From Podospora anserina (Eukaryota): a stretch of 64,000 nucleotides of DNA. This document shows, piece by piece, positions 19,708-64,000 of the stretch. Each line of letters starts with the position of its first letter. Position 1 is the stretch's first letter. The position numbers and the translations under genes were made by a program. The stretch is from the NCBI GenBank assembly GCA_017654855.1, contig CM030334.1, positions 3,720,001 through 3,784,000 of the forward strand. Direction: 5' to 3'. The notes beneath the pieces were generated by a model, which searched no databases, was not told the DNA's origin, and worked only from the letters and a program-made list of their open reading frames with translations.

Positions 19708-21618
19708 ATGTCTGATCGATACCATCCACAGGCTATTTTTCTTTCCTTTCTGGCATTGACCCAAGTCACAACTTGTCAAGACATCAACACACAACCTGTG
19801 GCAAAAGTGCTGAAGCTACAATGGACAACCGACCAGACCTCCCCAGGAGATCCGCTTACGCTCGGGACCTTTGGTCCTGATGGGCCGTGGCAAGCCTTGC
19901 CTGGAGTAATGAACAGACATGAATCGACTGCTACAATCAATACAACAGCCGTTTCTGCTCTCTGGCCATCGCCATGGACGAACATATCCGAGGTCATGTG
20001 GAGAAGCTTTGACGTGGCCCTAGAAGCGCAAACAACCTTCTCAACGGGAAGGTACAATCGACTGACCATATCGTCGTCTTATTTCGAGGAAAGCAGGACG
20101 AGCCGTACCGGAGACTGGGTACCGGACTGGGACATGTCCATCCCAGACATTGCGGGCAACTCGGTCAGGTTCTTCCACGTCAAGGCTCCTGTAGCCGCAA
20201 TTCAGTACGCCAGCATCAGCTTTCCAGCAGTGGAAGGATGGTCCTTTGTGGAGGACGACGTAGAGGGTACACTAGCTCTCGCACCTCCAGACAAACCAGG
20301 CTCAGAGAGCATCATTGCTCAGCTCAAGGACTCTGGCGTTGTGGATTGCAACTCGTTCGGATTGCATATGGGGAGTCCGAAGTGGAACCAAAGCGGCAGC
20401 TTCACATTGGGAGGATACGATGCTGCTCGTGTGATGGGCGAGGTAGCCACGTTTGACCTTATGGAAGATATTGACGCTTTCGAATTTGCGTCATGGCAAC
20501 GCTATCTGCCTCGGATCTACTTGATAGACGTCTCGCTTGGGTGGGAAAGAGGTAGCGGACCCTTTCTAAAAGATGAGACATTTCAAGGAAAGACAAAGTC
20601 CGTTTTGGCACCGATCCCTACCAGCTTGAACAGCACCGCACGAAGACAAGGAGACCAACGTGACAACCTTAGGGATAATGTCATGGTGGTGCCTGACCCG
20701 ACATTTCCTTTCCTGTATCTTCCACCTGGCACTTGTGAGAAGGCCGCCAAGCATCTGCCCGTGCACTGGGACGAGGGGCTGAAACTCTGGTTTTGGGATG
20801 ACGAAACATCCCAGAGTAATGATTACCACTATCGCCGCCTTGTCAACTCATCAGCCTACATGAGCTTCACACTACGATCCAACCGCGGCCGCTACCCCGA
20901 ACGGGAAGATTTCCCACCCAGTCAAACAATCACCATCAAGGTCCCCTTCCATCTTCTCGATTTCTACATTGAGCCCCCCCTCGTGTGGAGCGGAGTACAA
21001 CGGCGACGATTTTGGCCGTGCCGGTCAGTCATTCCAACGGAGGGTTACTGGAAACTCGGCCGCGCGTTCCTTCAGGCGGCCTTTCTCGGCGTCAACTACG
21101 ACAAAAACCTGGTGTACCTGGCTCAAGGAATAGGTCCTGATCCCAATCTCCCAAGCGAGTTGACCGTGATTAGACCAGGTGACGAATATATTTCTGGAAA
21201 CCCGAATTTCCTCTATAGAAATGCCGAGGATTATTATCAGACCTGGGCAAGTTATGGGAAAGTTCTTGAGGACCGCAGGCCAGATCAGGGGACACCTAGC
21301 TCGCCGGGCCCGGAGTCGTCACAGACCTCTTCGCTAGGGCGTGGTGGAACGATTGGGCTTACGGTGGGGGCTACGATCGGTGCCCTCTTGGTGTTTTGGT
21401 TAGTGTTTGGCACGACAATTGAGAAACGATGGCGGAAAATAGCGAGGCGAGATGGCGGTGATGCGGGAGCTGGTGTTGAACTTGGGGGATCAGACTCCAC
21501 AGTGACGACACAGGGGCCTGCTCATGATGTTAGGGATGCTGTATCGCCAGGATTGCCCAGGCCACCGACGTATAAAGAGAGGGATCAGAATGAGTCGCCT
21601 CCACCGTATAGGCCTTAA
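19708..21618 (+). CDS. Secreted single-pass membrane protein with a degenerate pepsin (peptidase A1-like) fold
   Basis: Signal peptide, FGPDGPWQA, SFGLHMGS...GSFTLGGYD, PDPTFPFLYLP, LGRAFLQAAFLG, a TM helix and PPxY tails. No canonical DTG motifs. Confidence 0.8.
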   Translation: MSDRYHPQAIFLSFLALTQVTTCQDINTQPVAKVLKLQWTTDQTSPGDPLTLGTFGPDGPWQALPGVMNRHESTATINTTAVSALWPSPWTNISEVMWRSFDVALEAQTTFSTGRYNRLTISSSYFEESRTSRTGDWVPDWDMSIPDIAGNSVRFFHVKAPVAAIQYASISFPAVEGWSFVEDDVEGTLALAPPDKPGSESIIAQLKDSGVVDCNSFGLHMGSPKWNQSGSFTLGGYDAARVMGEVATFDLMEDIDAFEFASWQRYLPRIYLIDVSLGWERGSGPFLKDETFQGKTKSVLAPIPTSLNSTARRQGDQRDNLRDNVMVVPDPTFPFLYLPPGTCEKAAKHLPVHWDEGLKLWFWDDETSQSNDYHYRRLVNSSAYMSFTLRSNRGRYPEREDFPPSQTITIKVPFHLLDFYIEPPLVWSGVQRRRFWPCRSVIPTEGYWKLGRAFLQAAFLGVNYDKNLVYLAQGIGPDPNLPSELTVIRPGDEYISGNPNFLYRNAEDYYQTWASYGKVLEDRRPDQGTPSSPGPESSQTSSLGRGGTIGLTVGATIGALLVFWLVFGTTIEKRWRKIARRDGGDAGAGVELGGSDSTVTTQGPAHDVRDAVSPGLPRPPTYKERDQNESPPPYRP

Positions 21619-31366: not shown

Positions 31367-33206
31367 TCACTCATCCGATACCCGCAAGTTCATCTGCCTG
31401 ATTTCCACCACATTTCTCTCACCTGGTCTGCCTTCGGGCACAGACTCCAGTTCTACCCCAGGCTGTGCCTGTGTTCCACGACTTCTTTCCACTCCCAACA
31501 CCACCTCCTTGTGTTCCTGGCTCAACCTTTGCCCTCGAACCAGCAAAGTGAGAACGGTGGCAAGGCCAGCAAACGCGACATACTGTGCACTCGTCAGCTA
31601 AGTATTTCTCAAAGACCAATACCCAAAGATAGACCCACCATAATCCAAACCAACCTCAGCGACTCAAAATACGCGGCCCTCACAACCATCTGTTCTTCCT
31701 CGACATGCAGCCCAATCCTCTCAATACTCCCAGCCGCCTCTCCACCCCTAAACCAACCCGCGATGTCCTCTCCCAATTTCTCAACCAACCCACCGTTCCT
31801 CCCATCCATCCCATTCTGAAAAATAACACCTCCCACGACAACCGACACCGCAGTCGCCATCGACCTCGCAAACCCCATCGCCGCAATCACCGCCGCCGTA
31901 TCCAGCTCGCTCGCTGCCGCCTGAGCAGCCAGAATCGGGCCCTTGATGTTCAAACCCACCCCCCACCCCAGCCAAAATCTCGTACCCGAACAACTTCCCG
32001 AGGTTGTCTCGCTCTTCAAAGTCGAGACTGACGAATAATCCAACCCCAATCATGAGGAACACTTGCGCGGCGTACATGACAGGGAGATACCTCCCCGTCT
32101 TCTGGATAGCCACGCCAGTAAAAGCCGCCGACAGCGAGCATGACACGATCAATGGGACAAGGTGGACTCCTGATGTTAGCGCGTTGGCTCCGAGGACAGA
32201 CTGGGAGTAGAGGGGGAGGTAGTAGGCCAGTCCGATGAAGACGAACGAGTCGAAGGAAAAAACGCCGTACGCAGCGATGGTGGAGAGATTGGGGAATAGC
32301 CTTGCGGGGAATATGGGATTGGGTGCCAACTTCCACTCATTGATAAAGAAGAGGAGCAGACTCAGGACGCCAAAGACGATGAGGTTGATGACTGTAAGTG
32401 AGGACCAGGCCAGGACTACATTTCCAAAGTCGAGGGCGAGAAGGATCATGAGGGCGCTACCGATAGTTAGAAGGGATCCGGACCAGTCGAGGGCTTTGAG
32501 TCCCGTCATGGTGGGGGTCTTGGGCGGTGATGAAAGGGGAAGGAAGAAGAGGATGGTGAGGAACACCAGCAGGCCGATGGGAACTGTGGGCTTATTAGAT
32601 TCCCGTTTTTTTGATAACGAAGAGAGAAAACTGACTATTGATCCAAAAGCACTACCTCCAGCTCAGCCTCGTGCTTAAAACACCACCGATCACCGGCCCG
32701 ATCGCACTCCCCAACGCCCACACCCCGCTAGTTACCGCAAGATATAACCCCCTGTCCCTCAAGCTGAACGAGTCATAAATGATGACATTCACTATCATCC
32801 CTATCCCGCTCGCGCCGACACCTTGCCACGCTCTCCCGATGATTAACGAGTGTATATTCGGTGCTAGGGCACAGAGCAGGCTGGTAAAGAAGAATATAGC
32901 CTGCGACAAGAGTATGATGGGCTTGCGGCTAAATGTGTTAGAGACTGCGCCCGAGGTGGGTGTGCTGGCTGTATGGGCGAGGATGAAGGAGGAACCGATC
33001 CAGATGTAGCCTTATGGGGAGGCAAAGTCGGCCACGATCGAAGGAATAGAGGGGGTTAGGATTGTCAAGTCGAGAGATGACAACAGGACGGAAAGGCAGA
33101 GCGGTGTTAGCAGGAGAGTGATGTCGCGTTTGGACCTGGAAGACTGAGGTGGGCTGTCATCTTGAGGTGTTCCATCGGGACTGGTGGGAAGCGGGATTGG
33201 TTTCAT
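31367..33206 (-). pseudogene. MFS drug:H+ antiporter (DHA2-like) pseudogene
   Basis: Motifs LSSLDLTILTPSIPSI, GRAWQGVG, GPVIGG and LDWSG. There is an in-frame TAA at 33012-33014 (SP*GYIWIGS) and a frameshift near 31960. Confidence 0.85.
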
Positions 33207-33572: not shown

Positions 33573-34167
33573 TCATATCGTCGAATGATTCTGCTCGTAA
33601 CCAGCTCCAGCGTACTTTGTCTTCACCTTCTCCTCCCCATCTTTCAACCTCCCAAAAACATCAAACACCACACCCCACCTCACCAAGTTCAATAACGCCG
33701 ACGCCAGTACCCCTCCCCAAACCAGATCGTTCCACTTCCCAAATTCCCAAAACGCCTCAGGTCCCAAACCCTTGTAGACGGACCAAATGTGGCCGTAATC
33801 CGCCAACGCGACCACGGTGCAGTACCCCTTTACCACGAATCTGTCCTTGCTGAAGCAGCAGACGACAGCCAAGCCGGCGAGGAGGAGGAAGACGTTGATG
33901 AGCTGAAGGGTGACGATCTCGGCCTGCGGAGAGAAATCGGGGGGCTGGGTGGTCTTGCTGGTGTAGAGCAGGTCAGGCGGAAGTTGGCGGTTGAAGTAGC
34001 TGTAGGCGCCAAAGCTGATTATGGCGACGCGATAGGCTTCGAGGCTGTGTAATTTGTCAGTGGTTTGGGCTATAGAAGCGGTTGGGGGGTTGGGTAACGA
34101 ACAGCAGCAGAGGCTCAATCACGCCAAGGACGACGAGGGGGAAGGTTGGGAGGATTGAGCGTGTTAT
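33573..34167 (-). pseudogene. Small multi-pass membrane protein, start codon apparently ATG>ATA
   Basis: (I)TRSILPTFPLVVLGVIEPLLL, an intron, then QLINVFLLLAGLAVVCC...VALADYGHIW. This resembles a common fungal four-TM family. Confidence 0.6.
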
Positions 34168-41728: not shown

Positions 41729-42379
41729 TCATACAACCCCCCTCTCAACCGGCAAACAGTCCCCAATCCCTTCCCCCCTTTCACAACCTGCCGGACACTC
41801 ACCCCCAGCACACTGCCACCCAAACTGCCTCTTACTTTCCTCCCTCCCCACTCCCCCAAGTACCACCTCCGGATCCTTATCCCTCATCCCAACTCCACTC
41901 CCAATAACCTCTTCGCTGCCAATGCCCAACTGTCCCCATCCCAGCTCTATCAGCTCTTTGATGGAAACCCCATAGATATACTCCCTAAGCCCCGCCCACC
42001 TCACCGCAGCAGCACACATAGGGCAGCTTTCCGCGTTGGTGTATAGCGTTAGTTGCTTGAACGCCGCGAGTGACTCGGCGGGTGTCATGTTGTACGCAGA
42101 CGACACAAAAAGTGAGGAGCAATTGCTTATAGCTGCCATCTCGCCGTGAAGAGTTGGATTACCCGTGCGAGAGTTTTGGTTGGCGCCTGTGCAGATCAGA
42201 GTTCCTTGGGGGTTGCCGGTGGTGTGGTTGACGATAACACTGCCAAAGGCGGCGAAGGGGCAGGGATGGGAGAGGGCGAGGGTGTTGGCTTGGTGGATCC
42301 AGTATTCACGGACTGATAGGGGGATGGTATTGTTGTGGCATTTTGGGGGATTGGGTGTTGATATGAACACGGCGTCCAT
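41729..42379 (-). CDS. Cytidine/guanine deaminase-fold (Zn-dependent, TadA-like) protein, native 5' end probably lost
   Basis: PFAAFGSVIV, NPTLHGEMAAI and LYTNAESCPMCAAAVRWAG give the HxE...CxxC motif. A signal-peptide remnant SLVLLLSTATAL lies immediately upstream in frame. Confidence 0.8.
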   Translation of the reverse strand: MDAVFISTPNPPKCHNNTIPLSVREYWIHQANTLALSHPCPFAAFGSVIVNHTTGNPQGTLICTGANQNSRTGNPTLHGEMAAISNCSSLFVSSAYNMTPAESLAAFKQLTLYTNAESCPMCAAAVRWAGLREYIYGVSIKELIELGWGQLGIGSEEVIGSGVGMRDKDPEVVLGGVGREESKRQFGWQCAGGECPAGCERGEGIGDCLPVERGVV

Positions 42380-42419
42380 GAGTGCCGTAGCTGTTGAGAG
42401 AAGCAGCACCAGTGAGGCC

Positions 42420-42725
42420 GACCAGGTTGGTGGTCCCTTGCTCAAACGTCTGGGTAGCCACGAACCCGCCAAACACCAGCGGCACAATAATGAGCACTTC
42501 TGGCTGTGCAATGCTCCCGCGCAGGGTAATGACGACAAGAGCCCCCAAGACGGCGCACTGAAAGCAGATGGTGGTGGTTTGGATCGAGACCGCTTCTTCC
42601 GGGAGCGCGATGCCGGCAACCAAAGTTACAATCCACTGGCAATACGTCCCAGTCCGAGTGCCGATGCCGTACAAGTCCTGTGTGGCTAGGATCTGACAGG
42701 AAATAGAAGTGGAATTATCTCCCAT
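42420..42725 (-). pseudogene. 5' fragment of a fungal membrane protein gene fused out of frame to the deaminase
   Basis: MGDNSTSISCQILATQDLYGIGTRTGTYCQW plus hydrophobic helices resembles the DxYGIGxRxxxYxQW family. The frame runs into unrelated sequence. Confidence 0.55.
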
Positions 42726-42909: not shown

Positions 42910-44016
42910 TTAACAACTGTGGTTTAAGGGATTTGGGCATGAGTAAAATACGCCTTTTGGCATATTAGCGGGGTTCACTCGACTTTCGGCCCAGTCGGGG
43001 TTGTCTGCAGCGACCTGGCTGAGCCTGTCTTCCCGCCACAACGGGGGCGCTTGCCATCGGCGGGAGGAACCACGTTGCTCAAAGTCGACCAGCACAATGT
43101 TGTCGTTCTCGTCTATGACTATGTTATCGGGCCGTAGAGCCGAATGAAAGGATTTTGCGGGGCCATAGAGATGTCCAAGGGCCAAGATGATTTGCCGGAT
43201 CCATTTTATCTTGGTTTGCAGGAGGAGAGGATGGTAAACGGCCGGCTCGGACTGGTTTGTTGTGAGCCACTCAAGAAGGGATCCGCCAGGCAAATACCTG
43301 AGTATGAAACCGCACACAATTGGTTGCTCAGCACCTGAGACCCGGCGAGTGACAATGTACTGCGGTCGGCTCATGATGTTGGGATGCGGGGGCATCCGCA
43401 GGAGCTCACGCATCTCATGATACATGCTAGCGACGACCCTAATGACACTCTTGAAGATAACCACTTCACCGCTGGGTAGCAAGACTTCTGAGATAGAGTT
43501 GTGGAGGCGACGTCTAGACCGTAGGACGTCGAAATCGATCAGTGGGGGTAGCTCCGAGCTCGCAATGTAGGGCTTCCAGAGCTCCGTTAGCCGTGACATA
43601 GGAAGGTATCGCTTATGGAGTTCGTAGTTGGGCGCAAGCCATATTCCGGCGGCGTCGCCCGTCATACCGTTGGTGTCATCAAGCCGGAATCTCGACCCGA
43701 TAGTCACGCCCTGGAGAACATGCCTAAGGTCCAACCTCATGCTCCATTTATTGAGACGAGACAAAATGTCTTTGGCAATCTCTCGTATCTCTCTTTCCTC
43801 GATGCCCGAGTTTTTGCTATCCGATGCCGTGGTCAGAGTCCGGGCGTAGTGGCTGTTTGGCTCTAGATAGCATGTTAGGTGGTAGGCCGGGTACTGGAGC
43901 CTGCTTTGCACTGGCGAAACATAAATATTGGGGACGACGTCAGTGTCGAACTTTTCGAGCCACCAACTACTCAATGGAGACTTAGAGACGTCACGAAGGA
44001 TTGCATCCACTGTCAT
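42910..44016 (-). pseudogene. Protein-kinase-like gene, truncated, catalytic Asp replaced
   Basis: Motifs VIFKS, YHEMRELL, HPNI, FHSALRPDNIV and VLVDFEQRG. The ORF ends before a complete C-lobe. Confidence 0.65.
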
Positions 44017-44937
44017 GGCGACGGTCTTCGTGCGCGAGGAAGAGGCAGTGAAGAGGATATTTTTTTGTCCGATAGTAGGTGATAGTGGTTGGGTGGTGGA
44101 AGCAGTGGAGATGATTTATTCGTTGGAGAAGCGGAGTCGAAGGGAAGTTTTATAGAGGCCACGGCAGCTCTCATGTCAACCCACTGGCAAGCCATAACCT
44201 CACCATTGTTTGACAATAGATATACCTTGACGTATCCATAGTTTGCTGCTACTGGAAACGATAGGCTAATTTCCAACGCCACAGTCACATTTTCTTTCGG
44301 ATAATACTGAAAATAACATGAACAGTAAGGAGGGTAGGGTGCGACTTGTTATTGCGACACCCCATAAGCGAGTCCGGAAACAGCAAAATATTTCCCTCGA
44401 TTGGAGAGAACACACCTCGGGCAGCTGTATTAGAAACGCCACACGGGAGGGAGCGGCTGCATCCCGCAGGGTAAATCCTGATGACCAAATCTCCAAACAA
44501 GGACACCAGGAATATCAGGTAATTCAAAAGTCTGGCTTTCAGTGTTCCAGTCTTGCGCAAAAGATAGGCTCATCAGGCATCTTTTGCCTTCGATGCAGTG
44601 AGGCCCGCCGCCAACACAGCCCGAGACGCAGCACAACAAGCAATGTGATTCGTTGTGTTCAAATGGCGGTCGTCCTCGTTGGCCAAAGTGAGGCTTTGCG
44701 GGGCCGTTGACCGGGTCGCACAAAGCGGGATACAGCAAGTGGCATCATGGACCTATGAAAACAGGCATGCTATCCGTGTGCAAACAGAAGGGTATGCCTC
44801 CGGGTTTGAGGAGGAAGGAGGACGACGGGGCTTTTGATATCTTAGGGTAACCCCTTGAACATGACTGTGATCTTTTCTCCCAAAGTTCTGCACACAACTC
44901 TATCCATCCTCTTCATCCCACCTTTGTTGAATCAACC

Positions 44938-47900
44938 ATGGCGTCAACCGACAACTCAGTAAGAGCCAATCGCCTGCGCACGCTCTTTCGAGAGACCGTT
45001 GCTGGGACTCGACCTATCAGGACTCCCCAGAGTGCCCAGCTATTCCTCGAGGCCGTTCGAGGTCAAGAGAACCCCAGTGCTTGCGTCGAAACTATCGTTG
45101 GGAGCACTGCCGGTGTTGACTCTGTCAGGGACTCGGTCCGAGCCGATTTGTCGTTGCGCTTCATGATTGCCAGTACGCTTCCATTCCTGCAGTACCTGTC
45201 CCATCCTGGCATCAAAGTTCTAGCCGACGGGCAGCTGTTGCGGCACGTCCTTTTGGCCATTGCGCAGCCTCCGACCGTATGGAATGCTCTGGTCAAGTTC
45301 TTCAAAAACCACGAGATCCCTGATGCCAGTCTCTGCGGCTTCGCTTGGCTGGCTCTTGAGCTTGCGCTTCTCCCACCCACCACCAACGTGAATGTGATTG
45401 ATGATGTGAGGGCCATCTCTGAATCCAAGGGACTCCTCAAGTCAGAGGGCCATGTGACGCGCGAGTATGGCTACCTGATTCAAAAGGTGTTGCGCATTCG
45501 GGGCTCGCCTGAGGAAGGTCTTGTCGGGAATGCGGGACCCGGAGGGCGACACGACAATGACCTGGCCGACTTTCGAAGAATTAGCATCTATCCCACGACT
45601 GACGAGTTCCTGTCGACTCAGCTCCCGTTCTACCAGACGGCGGTTGATGTGCGCGAGACTGACCTGGAGAAGCGACCGAGTGTACATCTCGACAACCAGT
45701 TTCGCCTGCTGCGAGAGGACATGCTGGCCGAGCTGAGGGAAGACCTGCAGGTGGCCATGGGCAGCAAAAAGGGCGGCAACAATCGGAGGTCGTTCATGCT
45801 CGGCCGACTGGATCCAGTGGGAATTGACGTGGGCAACTTGCAGCCGAAGGGAAAAGCCAAACCATGCACCCTTTTGATCAGGTGCTTTGAAGGGTTGCAC
45901 TTTCTCGAAAAGATGAAGCCCGAGGAGCGGAAGAAGTACCTCAAGGACGAAACAAATCTCCTCCGCCACCAAGCATTTGGTGTCCTCTGTCGCGACAAGG
46001 AGATCTTTGGCTTTGCTTTTGTCGACCGCGACGTCGACAACCTCGCCAAGTCACCTCCCATCGTTTCACTGCAGTTTACCGACGAAAATGGTCTTCGCAA
46101 TGCCATCCTCGCTCTCACCCTGCCCAGACGCGAGTTTGTGCAGTTCATCTTGGTCGGCACCCCAGTCTTTGCCTACGAACCCGTTCTGTTGGGCCTCCAA
46201 CGATCCGCCGACATGCCTCTCATGGACCTGCTGGTCAACCCCGCGCTCATAGCAGCATCTGACTTCAGCATCCCCCCCAAGCTACGGCCTTTGGTGGCCC
46301 AGCTTGTTGAGGACAGTAGACATCTCGCCGGCGAGGGCACTGTGGACCTTGACACCCCAACCGGCACCATCTCGATTGACAAGTCCCAGCTGGTGGCCCT
46401 CATGACCTCTTTGACCAAGCCTGTGAGTCTCGTGCAAGGCCCTCCAGGTACAGGAAAATCCTTCATCGGCGCTCAGATTGCCCGTTGTTTGCACAAGGCG
46501 GGCTTGAGGATTCTCGTTCTCAGCTACACAAATCATGCCCTGGACCAGTTCATGGAGGATCTTCTCGATGTTGGAATTCCTGACACCGCCATGGTCCGTA
46601 TCGGCTCCAAGGCGAAGTGCACAGACAGGACCAGCGCCCTTCTTCTTTCTGCGCAACAGGGCAGTTATAGACGCAGCCGGGATGGTTGGGCTATTGTCGA
46701 CGATCTCAGGCAAAAAGCAGCCAAGCTGGCCACAGAACTCCAGCAAATGCTACAGAGTTATTTACATTCACCATTTCGTTGGCAGGAGATTTCAGAATAC
46801 CTAGAGTTTTCGGATCCGGATGCCCACTTCTTGCAGGCTCTTCAAGTTCCCGAGGGCGAAGATGGGTGGCGGCGGACCGGCCAAAAAGGCAAGGAAATCG
46901 AGGAAGACTATCTGTTCAAGCTGTGGATGGCTGGCCAAGGCCCTGGCATCTTCAAGAATAACATCCCCAACATTTCCCGTGGAGTCTGGAAGATGCCTCA
47001 CCCGATCCGACTGAGCCATATTGAGAGATGGACCAAGGCCATGGCTGAAGAACGACTACACACGTTGCAGGAGGTAGCACGCCAGTATGGAGATCTTCAG
47101 AGAGACTTGGAGATCCAGTTCAGTCAGTCTGATAACCAGATCGTGCGTCAAAAAAGCATCATCGGTTGCACCACTACCGGCGCTGCCAAACATATTCGTT
47201 TGATCCGTGCTGCTAAACCAGATGTCATTCTGGTGGAAGAGGCCGGAGAGATCCTTGAGAGCCACATTCTGACGGCACTCTCACCCACCGTCAAGCAGCT
47301 TGTTCTCATCGGTGATCACAAGCAGCTGCGGCCCAAGATCAACAACTATGCATTATCAGTTGAGAGAGGTGACGGATTCGACCTGAATCGATCTCTTTTT
47401 GAGAGGCTGATCCTTCAGGGAGCCAAGCACGCCACTCTTCAGAAACAGCACCGCATGATTCCAGAGATTTCCTGCTTCGCCCGCGAGCTCACATACCCCG
47501 AGCTTCTCGACGGCCCCAAGACAAGCGGCCGCGAACGCATTCGTGGGTTGCAGAATAGAGTTGTGTTTCTGAGCCACACGAAGCCGGAAGACATCGACAG
47601 AGCGGTCAAGGACCGCCGCGACCCGGGTGCGAAAGAGAGCAAAAAGAACCAGTTTGAAGCCGAGATGGTCTTGCGTTGTGTCAAGTATTTCGGACAGCAG
47701 GGCTACAGCTCCAACCAGATCGTCGTCTTGACTCCCTATCTGGGTCAGCTGCGTGTTTTGCGAGACGTCTTCTCCAAGAACAAGCATGATCTTGAAATTA
47801 GCGAGATGGATAAAGCTGAGTTGATCAGAGCCGGATTGATCTCAGAGGCCGCCGCCAAGGTTGACAAGAAGCCTGTCCGGATATCGACCATTGGTGAGAG

Positions 47901-50900
47901 CATCTTGACATACACCCACAGAAATATTGCAAAAGAGACTAACACTTGACGACCACAGACAACTACCAAGGAGAGGAAAGTGATATCGTTATTGCTTCCC
48001 TCACGCGTAGCAACAGCTCTGGTGATGTCGGTTTCATGTCTGCCCCGGAGAGACTCAACGTTCTGATCACACGAGCCCGCAACTGCCTTGTTCTTATCGG
48101 AAACATGGACACCTTCAAGCAGAGCAAAAAGGGTAGAGCGGCCTGGGCTCCTTTTTTTGAGCTTCTGAACAAGAACGGCAATCTTTACGACGGACTTCCA
48201 GTCCAGTGCGAAAAGCACCCATCGACTCTGGCATTGTTGAAGGAGCCTGTTGATTTTGACAAGTATTGCCCCGACGGGGGGTGCACTGAGCTTTGGTATG
48301 TTGTGGCCCCGAACGTTTCTTTTTTTTCAAAACAGTGGCAGGGCCACTGTTCAGCATATCCTCTTTCCAGCATTGGGGCTTGGCACTCGGTGTAACATTG
48401 TTTTCTTTTCTCTTCTTTTTCTTTTTTCTTTTCCTTTTACTTTTCTTTTTTCTTTTCCTTTCGTGTTTTCTCTTTTCTCCTTTTCCCCCCCTCTTCTTGG
48501 TCTCGTTTTTTGGTCTTTTCCCTTTCTTTTTTTTTTCTTGCGTATTATCATCACCACCATGTTGTGGCCCCTTGGCTTCTAGTCTCTATTGCAGCTCTAT
48601 TATTCTGTTCACAAGGTGCAGGGCTAACTGGATTCTACACAGTGATACACTCCTCAAATGTGGCGTTCACAAATGTCGATCTCGCTGCCACCGCGTTGAC
48701 GACCACTCCAGGACGGAGTGCAATCAACTTATCAGCCGAGTTTGCGCCAGACAGCACAAGGTGAAAGTGCGATGTGGGAGGCAGAATGAGGGATGTGTCA
48801 ACTGGTATGTTTTCTTCCTCCACGCGTCCATTGGTGATTACGTTACGCGTTGGAAACTCCAACTAACACAGTAGCAGCATCAAAGAGGATAAGGAAATGG
48901 AGCGCAAGGCCAAGAGAGATTTGAAGCTGGAGGAAGAACGCAGAGCACGCGAGGAGGAGTACGCACGCACCTTGAAAGAGATCCAAGACGAAATTGAACA
49001 TCAGAGGCGCGTCAACAAGTACCATGCCGAGGAAAGGAACCGGAGCGAGACCATTGAACAGCAAAAGGCAGACCTCGAAGCGTTGAAAGAGGCCGAAATC
49101 AAGCTCCGTCAACAGAACAAGCAACGTGCAGAGGCGCAAGCCCGATCAAAGGATACAGCCACTTCCAAGAGCACCAAGAAAACGTCAGCCAAGTCTTCCG
49201 AGGAGTGGACAAGTGAGTCAAAGGCAGAATGGGAATTTCTGAAGCAGTCGGAGCCAGGGACTTACAGCAAGGCACTTGATGAGCTGATGGCCATGATCGG
49301 GCTGGAGGATGTCAAGCAAGAATTTTTGAACATCAAGTCAAAGGTTGATACGGCCTTGCGGCAAGATGTATCACTGGCCAAGGAGAGATTCAGCTGCTCC
49401 ATGCTGGGGAACCCCGGAACTGGTAAGTCACCCATGCTATCTCACTCTTCGGGTCTAATCTCTCTCTCTCTCTAGGAAAAACCACTGTGGCCCGTCTGTA
49501 CGCAGAGTTTCTCACGGAGCTTTGCGTCATTCCGGGCAACTGTTTCGAGGAGAAGACCGGTGCAGGCCTGGCGAACATTGGTGTTTCTGGTTGTACCAAG
49601 CTGATTGATGGAATCCTCAACACCGGCGGCGGTGTTCTTTTCATTGATGAGGCATACCAACTCACGTCCGGCAATAATCCTGGTGGCGCCGCTGTTCTCG
49701 ACTACCTTCTGGCTGAAGTCGAGAACCAGAGAGGCAAGATTGTCTTTGTCCTGGCTGGTTACAGCAAGCAGATGGAGAGCTTCTTTGCACACAACCCTGG
49801 ACTGCCAAGCCGATTCCCAGTCGATATGACTTTTGCCGATTACACCGATGATGAACTTTTGAGAATACTCGAGCTCAAGATCAACCACAAGTACAACGGT
49901 GCGATGGACTGCGCCGATGGCCTACGTGGGCTCTACTGTCGGATTGTGAGCCGGCGTATCGGGCGAGGACGGGGTAAGGAAGGATTCGGCAACGCGCGCG
50001 CTGTTGAAAACATGCTGGATATCATCTCGAGGCGCCAAGCCAATCGTTTACGACGTGAGAGGAAAAAAGGTGCCAAACCAAACGACCTTTTCTTCACTAA
50101 AGAAGACCTTATCGGTCCGGAGCCTGCGGAGGCTTTGACCAATTGCGCCGCCTGGAAAGAGCTTCAACGGTTGATTGGCCTTCAGTCTGTCAAGGATGCT
50201 GTTCGTTCGCTTGTCGACAGTATTCAACAGAACTATGTGCGAGAACTGGAGGAGAAGCCACCTATCGAATACTCTCTCAACAAGGTTTTTATGGGAAATC
50301 CTGGCACGGGCAAGACGACTGTGGCGAAGTTGTATGGGGCTATTTTGGTGAAACTCGGTTTGCTCTCCAAAGGCGAAGGTATGTATTCTGTCTTTTGGTC
50401 TCTGCGGGCTTGGAATCTTTGAGTAACCACTTCAACTGTTCTGGGCGAGAAGCTAATTGTCAACAGTTGTGGTAAAGAACCCGTCAGACTTTGTTGGAGG
50501 TGCTCTGGGCCAATCAGAACAGCAGACCAAGGGAATTTTGACGGCAACTGTTGGAAAGGTCTTGGTCATTGACGAAGCCTATGGTCTTTACGGAGGAGGC
50601 AGCCACGGCTCAGTCTCGGACCCCTACAAAACCGCTGTCATCGATACCATTGTGGCTGAGGTGCAGAGCGTCCCCGGCGATGACCGCTGCGTCCTGCTTC
50701 TGGGCTACAAGGATCAGATGGAGACAATGTTCCAGAACGTTAACCCTGGACTGAGCCGGCGGTTCCCCATTGCTTCTGGGTTCAACTTTGAGGACTTCTC
50801 GGACGAGGACGTTCGCAAAATCTTTGACCTCAAGCTCAAGAAGGCGGCATACCAAGCCACTCCCCAAGCCGTTGCTGTTGCCATGGAGATGATCAAGAGG

Positions 50901-52451
50901 GCTCGCAATCGACCCAACTTTGGAAATGCTGGCGAAATCGACATCCTGCTCGATGCAGCCAAGGCTCGCCACCAAAGACGTCTCAGCAGAGGCCAGGCGA
51001 AATCGGATAGTCTCTTCGAGGCCGTGGACTTTGATGAGAATTTCGACCGTGCAGACAAGTCGACTGCCAGCGTAAAGCAGTTATTTGAGGGCACAGTTGG
51101 GTGTGAGGAGACTGTGAGGCTTCTCGAGGGATACCAGGAAACAGTCCGCACGCTCAAGTCGCTTGATATGGACCCCAAGGAGAACATCCCATTCAACTTT
51201 CTCTTCCGAGGTCCACCTGGCACTGGCAAAACGACGACCGCGAAGAAGATGGGCAAGGTATTTTACGACATGGGATTCCTGTCAACTGCAGAAGTGGTGG
51301 AGTGCTCTGCTACTGACCTCATCGGACAATATGTCGGCCAGACGGGACCCAAGGTGCAACAGCTCTTGGACAAGGCTCTTGGGAAGGTGCTGTTTGTGGA
51401 TGAGGCGTATCGTCTCGCCGAGGGACATTTTGCCAAGGAAGCCATGGACGAACTGGTGGATTCCGTCACCAAGGACCGCTACGTCAAGAAGCTGATCATC
51501 ATTCTGGCGGGCTACGAAAAGGACATCAACCGCTTGATGTCCGTCAACTCGGGCCTCACCTCGCGCTTCCCAGCTGTGATTAATTTCCGATCGCTGACCG
51601 CCGATGAGTGTCTGAAACTTCTCTGCGAATTGCTCGGAAAGCAAAGGATGGGGCTCAAGAGCAGAGACAAGGATTTTGATCTCACATGCCTTGTTGCAGC
51701 AACGGCTACCTTCAGGCGGGAGGTCATCGCCTACTTTACCCACCTCGCCGCCCAAGACAACTGGGCCAGCGCGCGCGATGTTCAGAGTGTGTCCAGGGCC
51801 ATTTTCAACAGGATGTTGACAGACAAGACCGGGCTTGCCAGTGGCCGTCTGGTGCTGACCGAGGTCGTCGTGACTACCGAGCTGCGGACCATGCTGAATG
51901 AGCGGTCTTCTCGAAGCAACTTTGATGCGCCAAAGATCGACATCCAGGAGATACTCCGTCGATCGCAAGCCCCGCCGCCGCAGGGACTTTCTCATCGACC
52001 GGCTACCCGTACCACCACTGCCAATGAGATTCAGCAGACAAAGGTTGCAGCAGAACCGGTTGTTGAGGACAAAGAAGAAGAGCCACCCACTGTTCCCGAG
52101 ATCAGCACAACGGACCCAAACAACAAAGACTCTTGGATCAAGCGAGACGCAGGTGTCAGTGATGCGGTCTGGGAACAGCTTCAGCGGGATCGTCGGGCGG
52201 AGGAGGAGCGTGAGGACGAATACAGGCAGCTGTTGGAGGCCAAGGAGAAAGCGACTGAGGAGGCGAGGGAGAGGATTGTGGCCAGGTTGTTGGCGGAGGA
52301 AGCTAGAAGAAGGAAGGAGGAGACAATCAAGGAAAATTTGAAGGCCATGGGCGTTTGCCCTGTTGGGTACCCGTGGATTAAGCAAGATACGGGGTACAGG
52401 TGTGCCGGAGGGTCGCACTTTATTGGGAATGTTGATTTGGGAAATGTGTGA
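44938..52451 (+). CDS. ZNFX1-like SF1 (Upf1/NAM7) helicase + NFX1-type Zn region + coiled coil + three CbbX/SpoVK-type AAA+ domains (~2300 aa, 6 exons)
   Basis: GRHDND..DFR.I.I.PT, then helicase motifs GPPGTGKS, VEEAGE, GDHKQL, QHRM, TIDNYQGEE and RLNVLITRAR. A CGVHKCRSRCH segment follows, then three G(N/P)PGTGKT plus (I/V)DEAY sets. Introns at about 47894-47958, 48296-48642, 48805-48876, 49423-49475 and 50379-50466. Confidence 0.9.
48398..48540. repeat. Polypyrimidine (T/C) low-complexity tract inside intron 2 of the helicase gene
   Basis: Runs of TTTTC(C) repeated over about 140 bp. Confidence 0.8.
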
Positions 52452-52639
52452 GGTTCCGGTGTTCACGCTGTACTCTGTATGATGCTGGCAATTTGTGACA
52501 CAAATAGGAACACCACTTACACCGCTCAATGGCAACAGCCACTGCTTGATCAGGGTCGTGGATTAAGTACATCGTTAGGTATTTCTATCTACCTACCTAA
52601 TTACGTACTCTACACAAGAGAAATAATAGATAAGCTGAG

Positions 52640-52762
52640 ATAGGAACTTTTCTAGTTCAGATAGAGTTAGGATAGGAACTTTTATAGCTCGGATAAATTA
52701 AAAATAGGAGGCTTTATAGCTTAGCTAAAGCTAGGATAGGAGTTTTATCGCTTGGATAGAGT
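52640..52762. repeat. Degenerate 32-bp tandem repeat, about 4 copies
   Basis: Units start with ATAGGA at 52640, 52672, 52704 and 52736; approximate consensus ATAGGAACTTTTATAGCTCGGATAGAGTTAGG. Confidence 0.8.
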
Positions 52763-52889
52763 CCTATTGAAGTTTGGATTTATAATTAAAAAAACGGTAG
52801 GAAGAAAGTTATTGCGTAATCTTGTTAAACCAGATCGTCCTTTACTCTACTTCAAGTTTCCTGCCATTACCTCCTCGGAAACCTTGACC

Positions 52890-53395
52890 AAGGCTTCGTT
52901 GTCAGAGGTGCCGTGGTTACTAGTTTTGGACAACGTGGACGATCCGAAGCTTATTGGTTCCTACCTCCCTTCAACAGACTCGGGCTCTATCCTCATGGCC
53001 GTCAGAAATACGTCGACACATTTCACGCCAGCAAAATAGACTTGGGTTGTTCAGCCGCTCGGTAGGGAGGAGAGCCCTACGCTTTTAATGAGTCAGCTTG
53101 CCCTCGACGAGGCGATCACCAGCCGAGCGGAGGAAGATACCAAGGCAGCAGGCGAAATTTTCAAAGAGCTTTGCGGCTTTCGTTTGGCTATAACTCAAGT
53201 CGCCGGATTCGTCACCAACGCAAATTGTAGCCTGGTTGAGATGGTGACGATGTTCAAGAGTTTGTTTGATGTGAAGGCCATCCTTCAGAACCAGCAGGGA
53301 CCCGTCGATGCCTTGTAGCACGAGCACACCCTATCCAACGTCTGGGATGTCACGTTTTCGAGGCTCAAACAGCCAGTCAGAGATCTGCTTGGAGA
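52890..53395 (+). pseudogene. Internal fragment of an NB-ARC (NLR) gene
   Basis: One frame reads WLLVLDNVDD...GSILMAVRN...*...ELCGFRLAITQVAGFV...*HEHTLSNVWDVTFSRL (Walker B, sensor, GxPLA-like, WHD). It has two TAG stops and no P-loop. Confidence 0.8.
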
Positions 53396-60341: not shown

Positions 60342-61492
60342 ATGCAGAAATTGGGGGTAGGTCTTCGCATGCCTACCTACACTGAAGAAGGGAGACTGAC
60401 AGAGCTAAACGTACAGGATACGCTCGCCGAAAACTTCGGCGGAGCATTCACGAAGCTCGGCTCCCGACAATTCAAGCTCGATGATTGCCCTGATCTGACC
60501 GAAAAGGTGGGTGTTGTGACGGGAGGCAGCCAAGGGATTGGGTTCGGCGTGGCATATACCCTCCTCAAGCACAACATCAGTAAGCTCTACATAATTTCCG
60601 TCAACAAGGAGGTCTTTGAGGGTGCCAAAGCCGTCATCTCCGATGAACTGGGACAAGACAAGGCTGCCCGGATGGTCTGGATGAAGTGTGACCTTGTAAG
60701 TTGTCCCTTTGCTCCGGTGTTGACACTCACTGAGAAGAAACAACATAGAGCGACTGGCGGCGGGTCAAAGAAGTAGCCGAGATGATCAAGCGCGACAATA
60801 ACCGGCTCGACATCCTCGTCAACAACTCGGGTCGAGGCATCATGTCAGCCGAGCTCACCTCATATGGAGTCGACAGGCACATGGCAGTCAACCACATGGG
60901 CCACGTCGTCCTCACATCCCATCTGCTACCCTTGATGCAAAAGACGGCCGAGGAAGGAAACATTGTGAGAATCAGCAACCAGAGCTCCAATCTGCATACC
61001 GGTGCTCCCAAGGACACCAAGTTCGCTTCGCTGGACGAGATCAACCAGGACGTCGGACCCAATGCGCAGTACGGAAGGAGCAAGCTGGCGGGGATACTCT
61101 ACTCGCGATACTTCAACCGCAAGGTAACGCAAAATGGGCACCCAAATGTGCTCATGAACGCTACACACCCAGGCTTCGTGAGCACCAAGCAGAGTAGGGA
61201 GGATATTCTCGAGCCGTATCCCTTGGGTGGGTACGTGATGAAGTACGGCATAGAACCGATTAAGAAGGACCAGTTTGAGGGAGCCGTGCCTACCGTGTTC
61301 TGCGCAACCAAGATCAAGGATTCAGGCCAGTATATCTGCCCGCCTTGCATCCCTGAAGAGGGCAGCCCAATGTCGCAAGATGATGAGCTGGCGGATAGAT
61401 TGATGGAGTTGACGAGGAATATCATCACTGAGAAGACGAGAGTGGACTCGGTGGAGAGAGGATGTCCAATGGATGATGTTGTTGTACATTAA
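60342..61492 (+). CDS. Short-chain dehydrogenase/reductase (retinol dehydrogenase-like)
   Basis: Motifs TGGSQGIG, LDILVNNSG, YGRSK and HPGFV, with two introns. The start codon is uncertain. Confidence 0.88.
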
Positions 61493-62869
61493 TGGTCGGT
61501 TTTCGGGCGTTGAGCAGCCCCTTTTACCCCTGAGTTCAAGTCAGACCAAGATCTTCAATCAGCAACGACAGCCAAGCAGCGAAGGCGGGGGCACAAAACT
61601 GCACCATGCAGGCCATAAGGGGATATCAACCACCAACGAAAGCGGCGTAGACAAGAGGTCTCAAACGGAAGAATTTATTTGATGCTAGTTATTGGTGAAA
61701 GACGTTGCTGCATATGCATTCGAGGAAACTCAATGGTAACACACTGCTCGACATCCCAGAACGAAACAATGTTCATTTGTCGATGATGATGATGTGCCGA
61801 GCTCTGACCGCCTCCAGCAGCCTGAGTGGGGTTGTATTCGGAACCAGCTTCCAGCACACTGGAACCGAGTGATGGTTGTTCTGATTGGCCGGTATTTGAA
61901 ACGGTCCCTGCCGAGAAAGTTTGCGAAGGAGGGGTCACAGCCCGAAGCCTGTCCTGCTCAGCCCTATGATGGAATTGAGATGATGGGAGAGGTGGGATCA
62001 GAAGAAGGGCCATTGGTGTCGAATCCTATCCTCAGGAGCCGGTACTCCGTGTGGGTGGTGAACCGCAATTGGAGATGTGAGGTGAGCAGTGGGGGGTGGA
62101 ATGGGCTCAACGTCAAAGCTGCGGTTCAAGGTGTCACCCTGCAGTGACCCACTGGTGCCTGCACGCCACATCCAACGCTAAGCCAGAACAAGCACAATCC
62201 CTAAAGTCCCTGGAATTCATTGGCTCTGCCCCACGCCAATGGAACAGCAATTGACTTTGACTTTCATCCTTCCTGCCCGCCATTGCTTCTTCTTGCAACA
62301 AATCCTTTATTTTTTTGTTGTTGTTTTTTGCTACTTCTCTGTAAATCCCCGTTGCCCTCGGACAATCTCTTCTCCTTTTTCCTCTGACTCATTGTTGCAT
62401 CACGGCTGGTCCTGTCTCTCGCTGATCTCGAATACCTCATCGATTGGCCGCTCCGTCGTTCCTCGTTCCTCGTTCCCCGTCTTGCGTCCTTCGTGCCACC
62501 GCCATTGTTTCCTAGCCATCGCGACTTGCTCATTCCTCAAAGTTCCGAGACACAGTCGCACCAATCTCACTTTTCCTCATGACTTGAAGGCTTCTTGGGG
62601 GTCCAACGGCCGCGATTGCCACCCCTTTGCAAAGAGGTCAGGGGATTCGATAAAGCCTGGTTCTGGTTGTGACGTTGGAAACAGAACACATACCGGCATC
62701 ATCCTGGGGACTACTTACCCCTTCCTTTATATCGAACTGACTGGTCACCTTTGTGAGGTACGAAACGCGAGGGCTTCGGCCGTTTGTCGCCCCTCGCACC
62801 CAGCTGACATCGGCAATCGACCCACCCCAGCCCTGGTACCCAAAACAGCTTCGTTTGTGTCTGCCCAAC

Positions 62870-64000
62870 ATGAATGGCCATGGCACACAAGGCCACTTGG
62901 ATGATCCAGCTCGGGTCCCTTCTTCTCCTCGTCCCAAGGCAGGCTCCCGAACCAGCTCCAGTTCCTCTTCAACAGCGCAAACAACTTCCACACACTCTCA
63001 CCGATACCACCATAGCCGTTGCGGCGAACGAGCAAAATCGCACTTGTCGCGAGAGCTTTCCGACGGCACGAGTCTTGCCGTAACTCCAATGTCTGCCTTG
63101 TTGCAAGAGAGATTGGAGCGCGAGCGGAGGGTTGAGAGCGAGCGCGCGTCAAGTAGGACAAGCAATGATCTCTTTCGTTCTACCGTCGACAACCGAGCGA
63201 TCCGCAGCCCGTCCCCCGCAGACAGTCGTCCAATCTCGAGCCAAAGCTCAGATTCGGCTAGGAAGAAGGGCCTGGGAGTCAAGGAGATGGAACAGACTCT
63301 TTCGAATCTCCACAAGCAGAACTTTGACCTGAAGCTTGAGCTTTACCATCGGCGGGAAAGGCAGACGGTGTTGGAGGAGAGCTTGGAAAGGTTGGAGCTC
63401 CAAAAGGCCGAGACGGACAAGATGAATGACAGGCTTGTTCACGAGCTGGAGAAAAGGGACAAGGCAGTTGAAGAAGCTGTCAGCATGATTGTGGTTTTGG
63501 AAGCCCGGGTTGAGCAGTTGCTCAGGGAGCGAGAGATGGTCCGCCAAGTCGAGGTCCAAGGATTGCCAGGCGCGGAGGCAACATCAAAACACAAGGTCCT
63601 TCTGCCATCTGGGTCCGACGAGGTTAAGACCCTCAATCGAATGCCCAGTTTTGTCTCTGAGCACAGTGAGAGCACCGAAAACCTTCGAAATGTGTATCTG
63701 GGGGCCCGTGGCAACGTGTCCAGTCTCCCAACCATGCCCGAAGCCACCCCTGAGACAATCCGTGGGAGTTTCAGACTTGACAGTCCAACGTTGAGCATTT
63801 TGAGTGAAAGTTCTTTTGTGAGCGTATATGGTCGGACCAAGTCTCCAGACGCACCATCGCCTAAGGAAGAGAGTCCTTCACTCATGGACACGTCTTGCAT
63901 GCAGCGCATGCTTGCTCTGGAATCACCAACCAGAGTCAGAAGTGCCACCCCCAAGAACCGTCCCAGCACAGCCCGCGCCATCTCGAATGAATATACGCAT
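62870..64000 (+). CDS. Centrosomin motif 1 (Cnn_1N; Mto1/ApsB-type MTOC) coiled-coil protein, runs off window
   Basis: Open frame from ATG 62870 containing LGVKEMEQTLSNLHKQNFDLKLELYHRRERQ, followed by a coiled coil. No stop before the window end. Confidence 0.8.
   Translation, partial: MNGHGTQGHLDDPARVPSSPRPKAGSRTSSSSSSTAQTTSTHSHRYHHSRCGERAKSHLSRELSDGTSLAVTPMSALLQERLERERRVESERASSRTSNDLFRSTVDNRAIRSPSPADSRPISSQSSDSARKKGLGVKEMEQTLSNLHKQNFDLKLELYHRRERQTVLEESLERLELQKAETDKMNDRLVHELEKRDKAVEEAVSMIVVLEARVEQLLREREMVRQVEVQGLPGAEATSKHKVLLPSGSDEVKTLNRMPSFVSEHSESTENLRNVYLGARGNVSSLPTMPEATPETIRGSFRLDSPTLSILSESSFVSVYGRTKSPDAPSPKEESPSLMDTSCMQRMLALESPTRVRSATPKNRPSTARAISNEYTH

Follow-up and report, generated by a model that had tools for sequence, protein, structure and literature searches.

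A ZNFX1-family helicase joined to three CbbX-type AAA+ modules in a conserved fungal protein of Podospora anserina

A stretch of 64,000 nucleotides (nt) of the Podospora anserina genome (assembly GCA_017654855.1, contig CM030334.1, positions 3,720,001 to 3,784,000; hereafter the window, to which all coordinates refer) contains a six-exon gene at 44938-52451 on the forward strand which is the orthologue of P. anserina PODANS_3_11530. Its protein of 2,295 amino acids (aa) combines a helicase half of the ZNFX1 family, whose nearest solved relative is human ZNFX1, with three AAA+ modules of the CbbX type. It adds a new architecture to the ZNFX1 helicase family, one that is present in databases but for which no published study was found. 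The design of about 2,300 aa is conserved across Pezizomycotina and in Basidiomycota, the catalytic motifs of its four ATPase sites, one in the helicase and one in each AAA+ module, are intact, and the three AAA+ sites look catalytically competent. With a probability of about 0.5, the protein is read here as an RNA-coupled remodelling machine whose likeliest setting would be RNA silencing or RNA surveillance, and which would be active in spore-forming and sexual tissues.

Long open frames on the forward strand between 44851 and 52451 can be chained via five GT..AG introns, and the spliced coding sequence is free of internal stops (Table 1). The ATG at 44938 is the earliest in its open reading frame (ORF), which opens at 44851 behind the preceding stop codon at 44848-50 and has no further ATG upstream, and the stop codon occupies 52449-52451; both ends are those given by the first-pass annotation from its reading of the ORFs. 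Compared with the best protein match, P. pseudopauciseta QC763_311530 (P0001; 98% identity), 45 of 2,296 aligned columns differ. Splicing was checked by aligning to positions 44300-53000 the contigs assembled from four public runs, each of a different study (X1, X5, X7, and X8). Contigs without the respective intron were found in three of the four runs for introns 1, 3, and 4, in two runs for intron 2, and in all four for intron 5. One contig of 4,855 nt (X1 record 3) starts within the helicase core at 47078, crosses all five joints, and ends at 52555 beyond the stop codon; a second contig of the same run (X1 record 2; 44865-47083) overlaps it by 6 nt. Because this spliced contig bridges them, helicase and AAA+ modules reside in one message, in line with the single spliced gene of the first-pass annotation, and a two-gene artefact can therefore be set aside. 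Many database entries of 980–1,100 aa (helicase only) and ~660 aa (AAA only) might suggest two neighbouring genes, one for a helicase and one for a triple-AAA protein, that were fused only by annotation or assembly, but this is extremely improbable given the contig that links the helicase core to the 3′ untranslated region (UTR), the reading frame unbroken across all six exons, and the repeated occurrence of ~2,300-aa models in many independently annotated genomes. The short entries match the lengths of exon 1 or exon 6 and often come from metagenome or run assemblies, so that they are probably intron-blind gene calls; the homologue search at similar length also returned mostly ~1,000-aa proteins, near the length of exon 1 and many of the same origin, and none of them bore the name Hrr1 or SAD-3.

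Three in-frame AG acceptors stand in tandem at the end of intron 3 (ends 48871, 48874, and 48877), of which the contigs of three runs use 48877, in agreement with the P. pseudopauciseta protein; use of the other acceptors would insert one or two serines. Intron 2 is long for this gene, the others measuring 53–88 nt, and consists mostly of T/C-rich low-complexity sequence, of which 48395-48567 was treated as repeat. The strains of the runs differ from the window by an in-frame GGA insertion at 50591, in the glycine run after the Walker B motif of the second AAA+ module, and by five substitutions (49120, 50541, 50678, 50681, and 51095) which correspond to K1233R, T1660A, and three synonymous changes.

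The helicase half is a Upf1-like helicase of superfamily 1 (SF1), matched by the Pfam models AAA_11 (E-value 5e-30) and AAA_12 (E-values 2.9e-19 plus 1.9e-15 across exons 1-2). Motif I reads GPPGTGKS, motif II is a deviant VEEAGE, and motifs III to VI can likewise be recognised; none of the motifs varies among the 28 aligned orthologues. In a phmmer search of the PDB, ZNFX1 (9q9z_A) was found with an E-value of 1.2e-57 over two stretches that include the pre-helicase region, and UPF1 with 9e-23. Residues 208-560 align to ZNFX1 416-772, placing VEEAG opposite VEEAA of ZNFX1; a deviant VEEA Walker B motif has been described for ZNFX1 in a cryo-electron microscopy preprint (bioRxiv 10.1101/2025.10.14.682297). 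The AlphaFold model of exon 1 (alignment of 38 sequences; mean predicted local distance difference test, pLDDT, 85; predicted template modelling score 0.78) shows in order a helical domain (aa 4-188), a low-confidence loop bearing the GRHDND motif, a long helix, a beta-barrel, and two RecA lobes, with a helical insertion at about aa 581-737; the insertion in the core as a whole is placed at about aa 561-740. Foldseek ranks ZNFX1 9q9z first for the helicase (E-value 5e-27), as does VIA-align (Z 27.9, root-mean-square deviation 5.0, 555 aligned residues, 29% identity). The complete Upf1-like helicase and the GRHDND motif reported in the first-pass annotation are confirmed, the counterpart of this motif in human ZNFX1 falling just beyond the aligned stretch. 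That the helicase sides with ZNFX1 over other SF1 helicases is the common outcome of the three comparisons. The GRHDND motif occurs in variant form in 33 of 40 wider relatives, including those which bear a PARP catalytic domain or an RZ finger (GGRHNND in the RZ-bearing relative P0341). Upstream of it, the N-terminal helical domain is covered by no PDB match, and a Pfam search of the first 480 aa at E-values up to 10 gave chance-level matches only.

Between the two halves lie a Cys/His stalk and a charged segment. The Cys/His columns of the stalk are invariant or almost so across the 28 orthologues, and the part of exon 2 beyond the helicase aligns to ZNFX1 alone, its first Cys/His knuckle corresponding to ZNFX1 residues 1340-1376. 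Exon 3 alone gave no match in the PDB, and the Pfam zf-NF-X1 model scores 12.3 bits against a cut-off of 22.7. The NFX1-like nature previously ascribed to this segment is thus only tentative. The adjoining stretch of 95 aa had been called a coiled coil. It contains 50 charged residues (53%), 15 hydrophobic ones, and neither proline nor glycine, and the periodicity script returned no distinct 3.5-residue (heptad) signal; this suggests a single charged helix rather than a coiled coil.

Each of the three AAA+ modules (AAA1 to AAA3) contains a Walker A motif (GxPGTGKTT), a Walker B motif (DEAY), the LAGY strand, and the NPGLxSRF arginine motif, and all are matched by the Pfam models AAA (E-value 7.7e-19 for AAA3) and AAA_lid_6, which hit exons 5 and 6. 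They have diverged to a pairwise identity of 24–35%. The sensor-2 arginine is kept in AAA1 and AAA3 and replaced by glycine in AAA2, whose lid reads GNAG. Of the three, AAA3 alone has an aromatic pore loop (YVG), and the corresponding position of AAA1 lacks an aromatic residue; the full set of Walker motifs, arginine motif, sensor 2, and aromatic pore loop is complete only in AAA3. Searched against the PDB, the AAA half finds CbbX (E-value 3.7e-33) and EccA1 (2.9e-28), and the NCBIfam models SpoVK, CbbX, and EccA match it with E-values of 1e-37 to 2e-64. Their scores of 128–217 bits lie far under the equivalog cut-offs of 423–467 bits, and the protein is therefore a relative and not a member of these named families. 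In the residue alignment, the GQYVGQT pore loop and the Walker B motif of AAA3 stand opposite those of CbbX (pore loop GQYIGHT), and AAA2 aligns to CbbX 151-261. CbbX is also the top Foldseek match to AAA3 (template modelling score 0.66–0.69) in the model of exon 6 (mean pLDDT 84; about 90 for the AAA3 part). Pfam, NCBIfam, the PDB search, Foldseek, and the residue alignment hence agree with the earlier description of three CbbX-type modules whose Walker A and B motifs are intact.

The protein ends in a Cys/His tail which the first-pass annotation had not mentioned. It is invariant or almost so in the 28 aligned orthologues, is also present in those of Orbilia, Scleroderma, Atractiella, and Phanerochaete, and forms a small three-stranded sheet from the last 30 residues in the exon 6 model (strands 636-653). 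The last 116 aa match no Pfam model at E-values up to 10, the RZ model PF20173 included, a search of the Protein Atlas with the tail gave no usable match, and a hidden Markov model of the tail did not match the RZ region of P0341. The tail resembles the RZ finger of P0341 at the ends only (CP.G.P ... C..GGS.H) and lacks three of its six Cys/His positions. A search with the tail region found 207 proteins at E-values up to 0.01, of which the best 120 are nearly all AAA proteins of the same family and of about 660 aa, the size of the last exon; no other protein context for the tail occurs among these 120.

The architecture is widespread in fungi. A search for longer homologues yielded 664 proteins at E-values up to 0.001 among 8,000 scored candidates, and the best 120 of these, as read from the result table, all have helicase and AAA Pfam domains, measure in nearly all cases 2,000–2,400 aa (mostly 2,200–2,400 aa), and span Sordariomycetes, Leotiomycetes, Eurotiomycetes, Dothideomycetes, and Lecanoromycetes. 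Further cluster members come from Orbilia oligospora, Fusarium graminearum (FGSG_02130), and the basidiomycetes Scleroderma, Atractiella, and Phanerochaete. The 90% cluster of the best match also holds PODANS_3_11530 of P. anserina S mat+ and the proteins of P. comata, P. pseudocomata, P. bellae-mahoneyi, and P. pseudoanserina, the P. anserina complex having one orthologue per species with an identical locus number. The Neurospora orthologue is 60% identical across exon 1. Database entries bear automatic names such as “stage V sporulation protein K,” “AAA family ATPase,” or “hypothetical protein.” Across the 28 orthologues, 20–28% of columns are invariant in the RecA parts and in each AAA module as opposed to 0–6% in the linkers, which points to constraint on all four ATPase sites.

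Sordaria macrospora has two full-length adjacent paralogues, SMAC_08696 (P0021) and SMAC_08698 (P0042), and since these share one contig and their locus numbers are two apart, a tandem duplication in Sordariaceae is suggested. Neurospora species have two types of the protein (P0016 and P0036) with nearly identical C-terminal regions, which may result from gene conversion.

Beyond the closest orthologues, an exhaustive profile-free search gave 2,119 representative clusters at E-values up to 1e-30. Pfam domains were determined for 29 lower-ranked representatives: six have AAA, four a PARP catalytic domain, one an RZ finger, one a CCCH finger, one combines a double helicase and the Pfam ZNFX1 domain, and 16 have nothing further. 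The relatives bearing PARP, RZ, or CCCH domains (P0321, P0333, P0338, P0339, P0341, and P0345) all share the chassis of GRHDND motif plus helicase; one PARP-bearing relative adds an N-terminal SAM domain, one comes from the choanoflagellate Didymoeca costata, and the CCCH finger is N-terminal. In a midpoint-rooted helicase tree of 40 representatives, from which P0359 was left out for its two helicase cores, the ten proteins of Pezizomycotina group together with a support of 100/99, and four AAA-bearing relatives lie outside the fungal clade. At least four changes of the AAA label are needed on well-supported branches of this tree, which has no outgroup and therefore gives neither a single origin nor a direction of module exchange.

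Table 1. Features of the helicase-AAA gene, its protein, and neighbouring ORFs in the window.
Feature	Position	Strand	Evidence or remarks
5′ UTR, minimum extent	44865..44937	+	X1 record 2 begins at 44865
Exon 1, aa 1-985 + 1 nt	44938..47893	+	N-terminal helical domain, GRHDND, beta-barrel, helicase motifs I to V
Intron 1, 65 nt, GT..AG	47894..47958	+	Absent from X1, X5, X8 contigs
Exon 2	47959..48295	+	End of RecA2 (motifs V and VI), start of Cys/His stalk
Intron 2, 347 nt, GT..AG	48296..48642	+	Absent from X1, X7 contigs
Exon 3	48643..48804	+	Contigs
Intron 3, 73 nt, GT..AG	48805..48877	+	Absent from X1, X5, X7 contigs
Exon 4	48878..49422	+	Charged helix, Ser/Thr/Lys-rich linker, AAA1 start to mid Walker A
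Intron 4, 53 nt, GT..AG	49423..49475	+	Within AAA1 Walker A codons; absent from X1, X5, X8 contigs
Exon 5	49476..50378	+	Contigs
Intron 5, 88 nt, GT..AG	50379..50466	+	Absent from contigs of four of four runs
Exon 6 including stop codon	50467..52451	+	Contigs
3′ UTR, minimum extent	52452..52714	+	Contig ends 52555 (X1), 52714 (X7), 52712 (X8)
N-terminal all-helical domain, aa 1-190, ten helices	44938..45507	+	AlphaFold model, pLDDT mostly >90
GRHDND motif, aa 203-208	45544..45561	+	Invariant in 28 of 28 aligned orthologues
Beta-barrel region, aa 287-405	45796..46152	+	Model strands; position of ZNFX1 insertion 1B
SF1B Upf1-like helicase core, aa 481-1050, split by intron 1	46378..48152	+	Pfam, invariant motifs, ZNFX1 9q9z
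Cys/His stalk, aa 1069-1152, across introns 2 and 3	48207..48878	+	16 conserved Cys/His positions
Highly charged helix-like segment, 95 aa	48879..49163	+	Composition and periodicity script
AAA+ module 1 + lid	49275..50155	+	Walker A GNPGTGKTT, Walker B FIDEAY, NPGLPSRF, lid GNAR
AAA+ module 2 + lid	50156..51080	+	Walker A GNPGTGKTT, Walker B VIDEAY, NPGLSRRF, lid GNAG
AAA+ module 3 + lid	51081..51935	+	Walker A GPPGTGKTT, Walker B FVDEAY, NSGLTSRF, lid ASAR
Poorly conserved linker	51936..52136	+	pLDDT <50 at exon-6 residues 505-555; 0/67 columns invariant
RDAGVSD..WEQLQRD motif + helical hairpin	52137..52346	+	Conserved; exon-6 helices 565-594, 597-627, pLDDT ~90
C-terminal Cys/His tail	52347..52448	+	G.CP.GY.WIKQ..GYRC.GGSHF; 7/34 columns invariant
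EF-G/LepA C-terminus ORF	14950-15585	+	Pfam
Aspartyl protease ORF (weak)	19573-21615	+	Pfam
Major facilitator superfamily (MFS) transporter ORF (below cut-off)	31784-32662	-	Pfam
DUF7704 ORF	33576-34118	-	Pfam
Ankyrin-repeat ORF, 976 aa	37519-40446	-	Ank_2 E-value 8.7e-84; 246-aa N-terminal part without Pfam match
Cytidine/deoxycytidylate deaminase-like ORF	41732-42625	-	E-value 7e-13
Kinase-like ORF	42913-44115	-	27.5 bits vs. Pfam cut-off 31.7 (below)
Short-chain dehydrogenase ORF	60749-61489	+	Pfam
Centrosomin motif 1 ORF	62741-64000	+	Pfam

How such a protein might work can be proposed from its relatives. One chain leads from a ZNFX1-family 5′-3′ SF1 RNA helicase through the Cys/His stalk and the charged helix to the three AAA+ modules and the tail. 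The helicase half would engage single-stranded RNA, as do ZNFX1 and UPF1, while the AAA+ half may oligomerise as a ring, either a hexamer with stacked rings or a (dimeric) pseudo-hexamer. CbbX pulls on the tail of the Rubisco large subunit, and the AAA3 pore loop could pull on a polypeptide in a comparable manner. With a helicase on RNA, an AAA ring, and threading by AAA3, the machine would strip or remodel the proteins bound to particular RNAs.

The proposed setting draws on Neurospora crassa. The orthologue XP_958936.2 (P0392; 2,307 aa), named “stage V sporulation protein K” by NCBI, is probably NCU09357, a correspondence made by matching names and descriptions only. Under the same description, NCU09357 shows an ADA-6-dependent rise in late conidiation (PMC6468284; echoed in PMC11708020), where it is co-regulated with con-6, con-8, con-10, and eas (PMC6468284; PMC11708020). 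As “ATPase, DNA/RNA helicase” with a ratio of nonsynonymous to synonymous substitution rates (dN/dS) of 0.349, it is also listed among the faster-evolving sex-associated expressed sequence tags (ESTs), together with QDE-2, an RNA-dependent RNA polymerase, and the other paralogue NCU05861 (PMC3571971). In a study covering Hrr1, SAD-3, and RnhA, which are helicases of RNA interference (RNAi) or meiotic silencing, NCU09357 appears as an uncharacterised possible paralogue of SAD-3, placed outside the Hrr1/SAD-3/RnhA cluster of the published tree (PMC5384783). A role in RNA silencing or surveillance is proposed because of this paralogy with SAD-3/Hrr1 and the developmental expression, and a strain-variable immune receptor is considered less likely. 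Searches for PODANS_3_11530, Pa_3_11530, SMAC_08696, SMAC_08698, CHGG_10653, NEUTE1DRAFT_146869, FGSG_02130, and AOL_s00080g228 returned no paper in the searched library, nor was a paper found there that names both CbbX and ZNFX1; with mentions of NCU09357 as an uncharacterised gene as their sole yield, the literature searches support the earlier statement that no functional characterisation is known.

Several points weigh against an RNA-coupled remodelling machine in silencing or surveillance. The binding of RNA, the oligomeric state, and the threading of a substrate are transferred from relatives, and no functional study of the protein or of any orthologue was found. The expression and dN/dS figures belong to Neurospora and not to Podospora, and they depend on the probable identity of XP_958936.2 with NCU09357. 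The structural lead of ZNFX1 in VIA-align amounts to only about 2–3 Z units over the runners-up Ighmbp2 (26.3) and Upf1 (25.3). Since the aromatic pore loop is found only in AAA3 and AAA2 lacks the sensor-2 arginine, the AAA modules may serve regulation or assembly rather than unfolding. As for the transcript, the RNA label of the runs is a guess, their RNA origin being deduced from intron removal, and no single contig covers the whole mRNA.

The expression data could also be taken to indicate a developmental housekeeping remodeller of ribonucleoprotein (RNP) or protein complexes which acts in conidiation, ascospore formation, or dormancy, outside silencing and defence. The ADA-6-dependent appearance of NCU09357 with con-6, con-8, con-10, and eas in late conidiation and its place among sexual-tissue ESTs (PMC3571971) would fit such a role, as would the broad conservation and the strong constraint on all modules. 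This expression evidence is, however, correlative and comes from the probable orthologue only, and the characterised relatives ZNFX1, ZNFX-1, Hrr1, SAD-3, and RnhA all act in RNA silencing or sensing. Moreover, several yeast lineages have no orthologue of the SAD-3/Hrr1 family, a statement that concerns this family only (PMC5384783). A purely developmental role is the less probable reading.

Unlikely is a dedicated innate-immune sensor which, on detecting viral or other non-self RNA, would use the AAA+ trio as its antiviral or cell-death arm, comparable to animal ZNFX1 or RNF213. Module swapping is typical of immune proteins, and the best argument for an immune-like family is a chassis with swapped C-terminal modules, as the PARP, RZ, CCCH, and AAA domains among the 29 scanned relatives illustrate. 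ZNFX1, to which the helicase is nearest among solved structures, is induced by interferon and antiviral, and the dN/dS of NCU09357 is elevated on one branch (PMC3571971). The two adjacent paralogues in Sordaria would also suit a defence gene. The helicase core further matches that of the anti-phage protein Mokosh MkoA (E-value 1.4e-42), but this match concerns the generic Upf1-like core. Unlike in a strain-variable defence gene, architecture and catalytic residues are kept from Orbilia to Basidiomycota, although conserved sensors such as ZNFX1 do exist. There is one orthologue per species in the P. anserina complex, the expression of NCU09357 is developmental, and the tail is without a match to the Pfam RZ model, all of which speak against an immune sensor.

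Decidedly doubtful, finally, is a more far-reaching proposal according to which the ZNFX1-like chassis is an ancient eukaryotic RNA sensor whose outputs have been exchanged: an RZ/Miz E3 ligase in animals, a PARP domain in choanoflagellates and others, and a trio of CbbX-type AAA+ modules in fungi. The fungal protein would then be the unfoldase-ring counterpart of ZNFX1 and RNF213 in function, destroying or remodelling the RNPs of viruses or transposons, and the CP.GY...C.GGSH tail could be a relic of a shortened RZ finger.

AT-rich tracts resembling the product of repeat-induced point mutation (RIP) are confined to 1–14 kb and 24–28 kb of the window; they have a GC content of 0.26–0.37, TpA/ApT ratios of 1.2–1.5, and (CpA+TpG)/(ApC+GpT) ratios of 0.09–0.86; long ORFs are nearly absent from them, and they probably represent repeats mutated by RIP. 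From 28 to 64 kb, the 36 kb in which the gene lies, composition is normal and long ORFs occur, so that the locus does not set an intact gene against decayed neighbours. The earlier statement that most neighbours are decayed thus fails for the 15 kb on either side of the gene, the RIP-like tracts lying farther off. Compared with Pfam, the flanking ORFs (Table 1) gave no sign of a functional cluster; those for EF-G/LepA, protease, MFS transporter, DUF7704, dehydrogenase, and centrosomin look like ordinary genes. The kinase-like ORF is divergent from the helicase-AAA gene and lies about 820 bp upstream of it.

The ZNFX1 helicase has recently been described as coupled to ubiquitin ligase domains, and its fungal relatives Hrr1 and SAD-3 are core factors of RNA silencing; the protein described here would present the same chassis with a mechanical AAA+ output. 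Finding its substrate and RNAs would add a missing component to the biology of fungal RNA silencing, surveillance, or antiviral response, and would show how helicase sensors connect to mechanical effectors. With a Neurospora orthologue as knockout candidate and the good genetics of Podospora, it would offer a tractable model of the ZNFX1 family.

Among known systems, Mokosh MkoA, a bacterial anti-phage helicase, shares the Upf1-like SF1 core. The match, obtained with PADLOC without a cut-off, covers only the generic helicase core at 479-951, the operon context is not applicable, and MkoA lacks the GRHDND region, the Cys/His stalk, and the AAA trio. RNF213 is similar in being a giant protein with ATPase modules and a C-terminal Cys/His element. 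Its six modules are of the dynein-like AAA type, whereas those described here belong to the classic clade and are of the CbbX type, AAA_5 reaching a weak E-value of 0.0067 with no stretch passing. The multi-AAA analogy to RNF213 drawn at the outset is consequently loose. The Pfam scan of the exons found no RING family at E-values up to 0.01, and that of the tail no RZ match. RNF213 has its RZ finger in common with ZNFX1. CbbX (the red-type Rubisco activase), mycobacterial EccA1, and SpoVK of Bacillus share the module of AAA plus AAA_lid_6, and CbbX resembles AAA3 residue by residue over Walker A, the GQY[VI]G pore loop, and Walker B. These are single-module proteins of about 290–560 aa, in contrast to the three diverged copies which follow a helicase in one chain. 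Hrr1 of Schizosaccharomyces pombe, SAD-3 of N. crassa, and RnhA of Mucor belong to the same helicase superfamily, but measure 999–1,231 aa and have no AAA+ modules. With human ZNFX1 (9q9z), its best match by sequence and fold among solved structures, the Podospora protein shares the SF1B core, the VEEA Walker B motif, the pre-helicase region with its beta-barrel, the large RecA1 insertion, and a Cys/His knuckle directly after RecA2. ZNFX1 has a long stalk of NFX1 fingers, with Miz and RZ-finger E3 ligase domains at the C-terminus (bioRxiv 10.1101/2025.10.14.682297). The Pfam models for the RZ finger (PF20173) and the ZNFX1 domain (PF25396) find nothing in the Podospora protein at E-values up to 10; here the stalk is short, and three AAA+ modules fill the C-terminal half.

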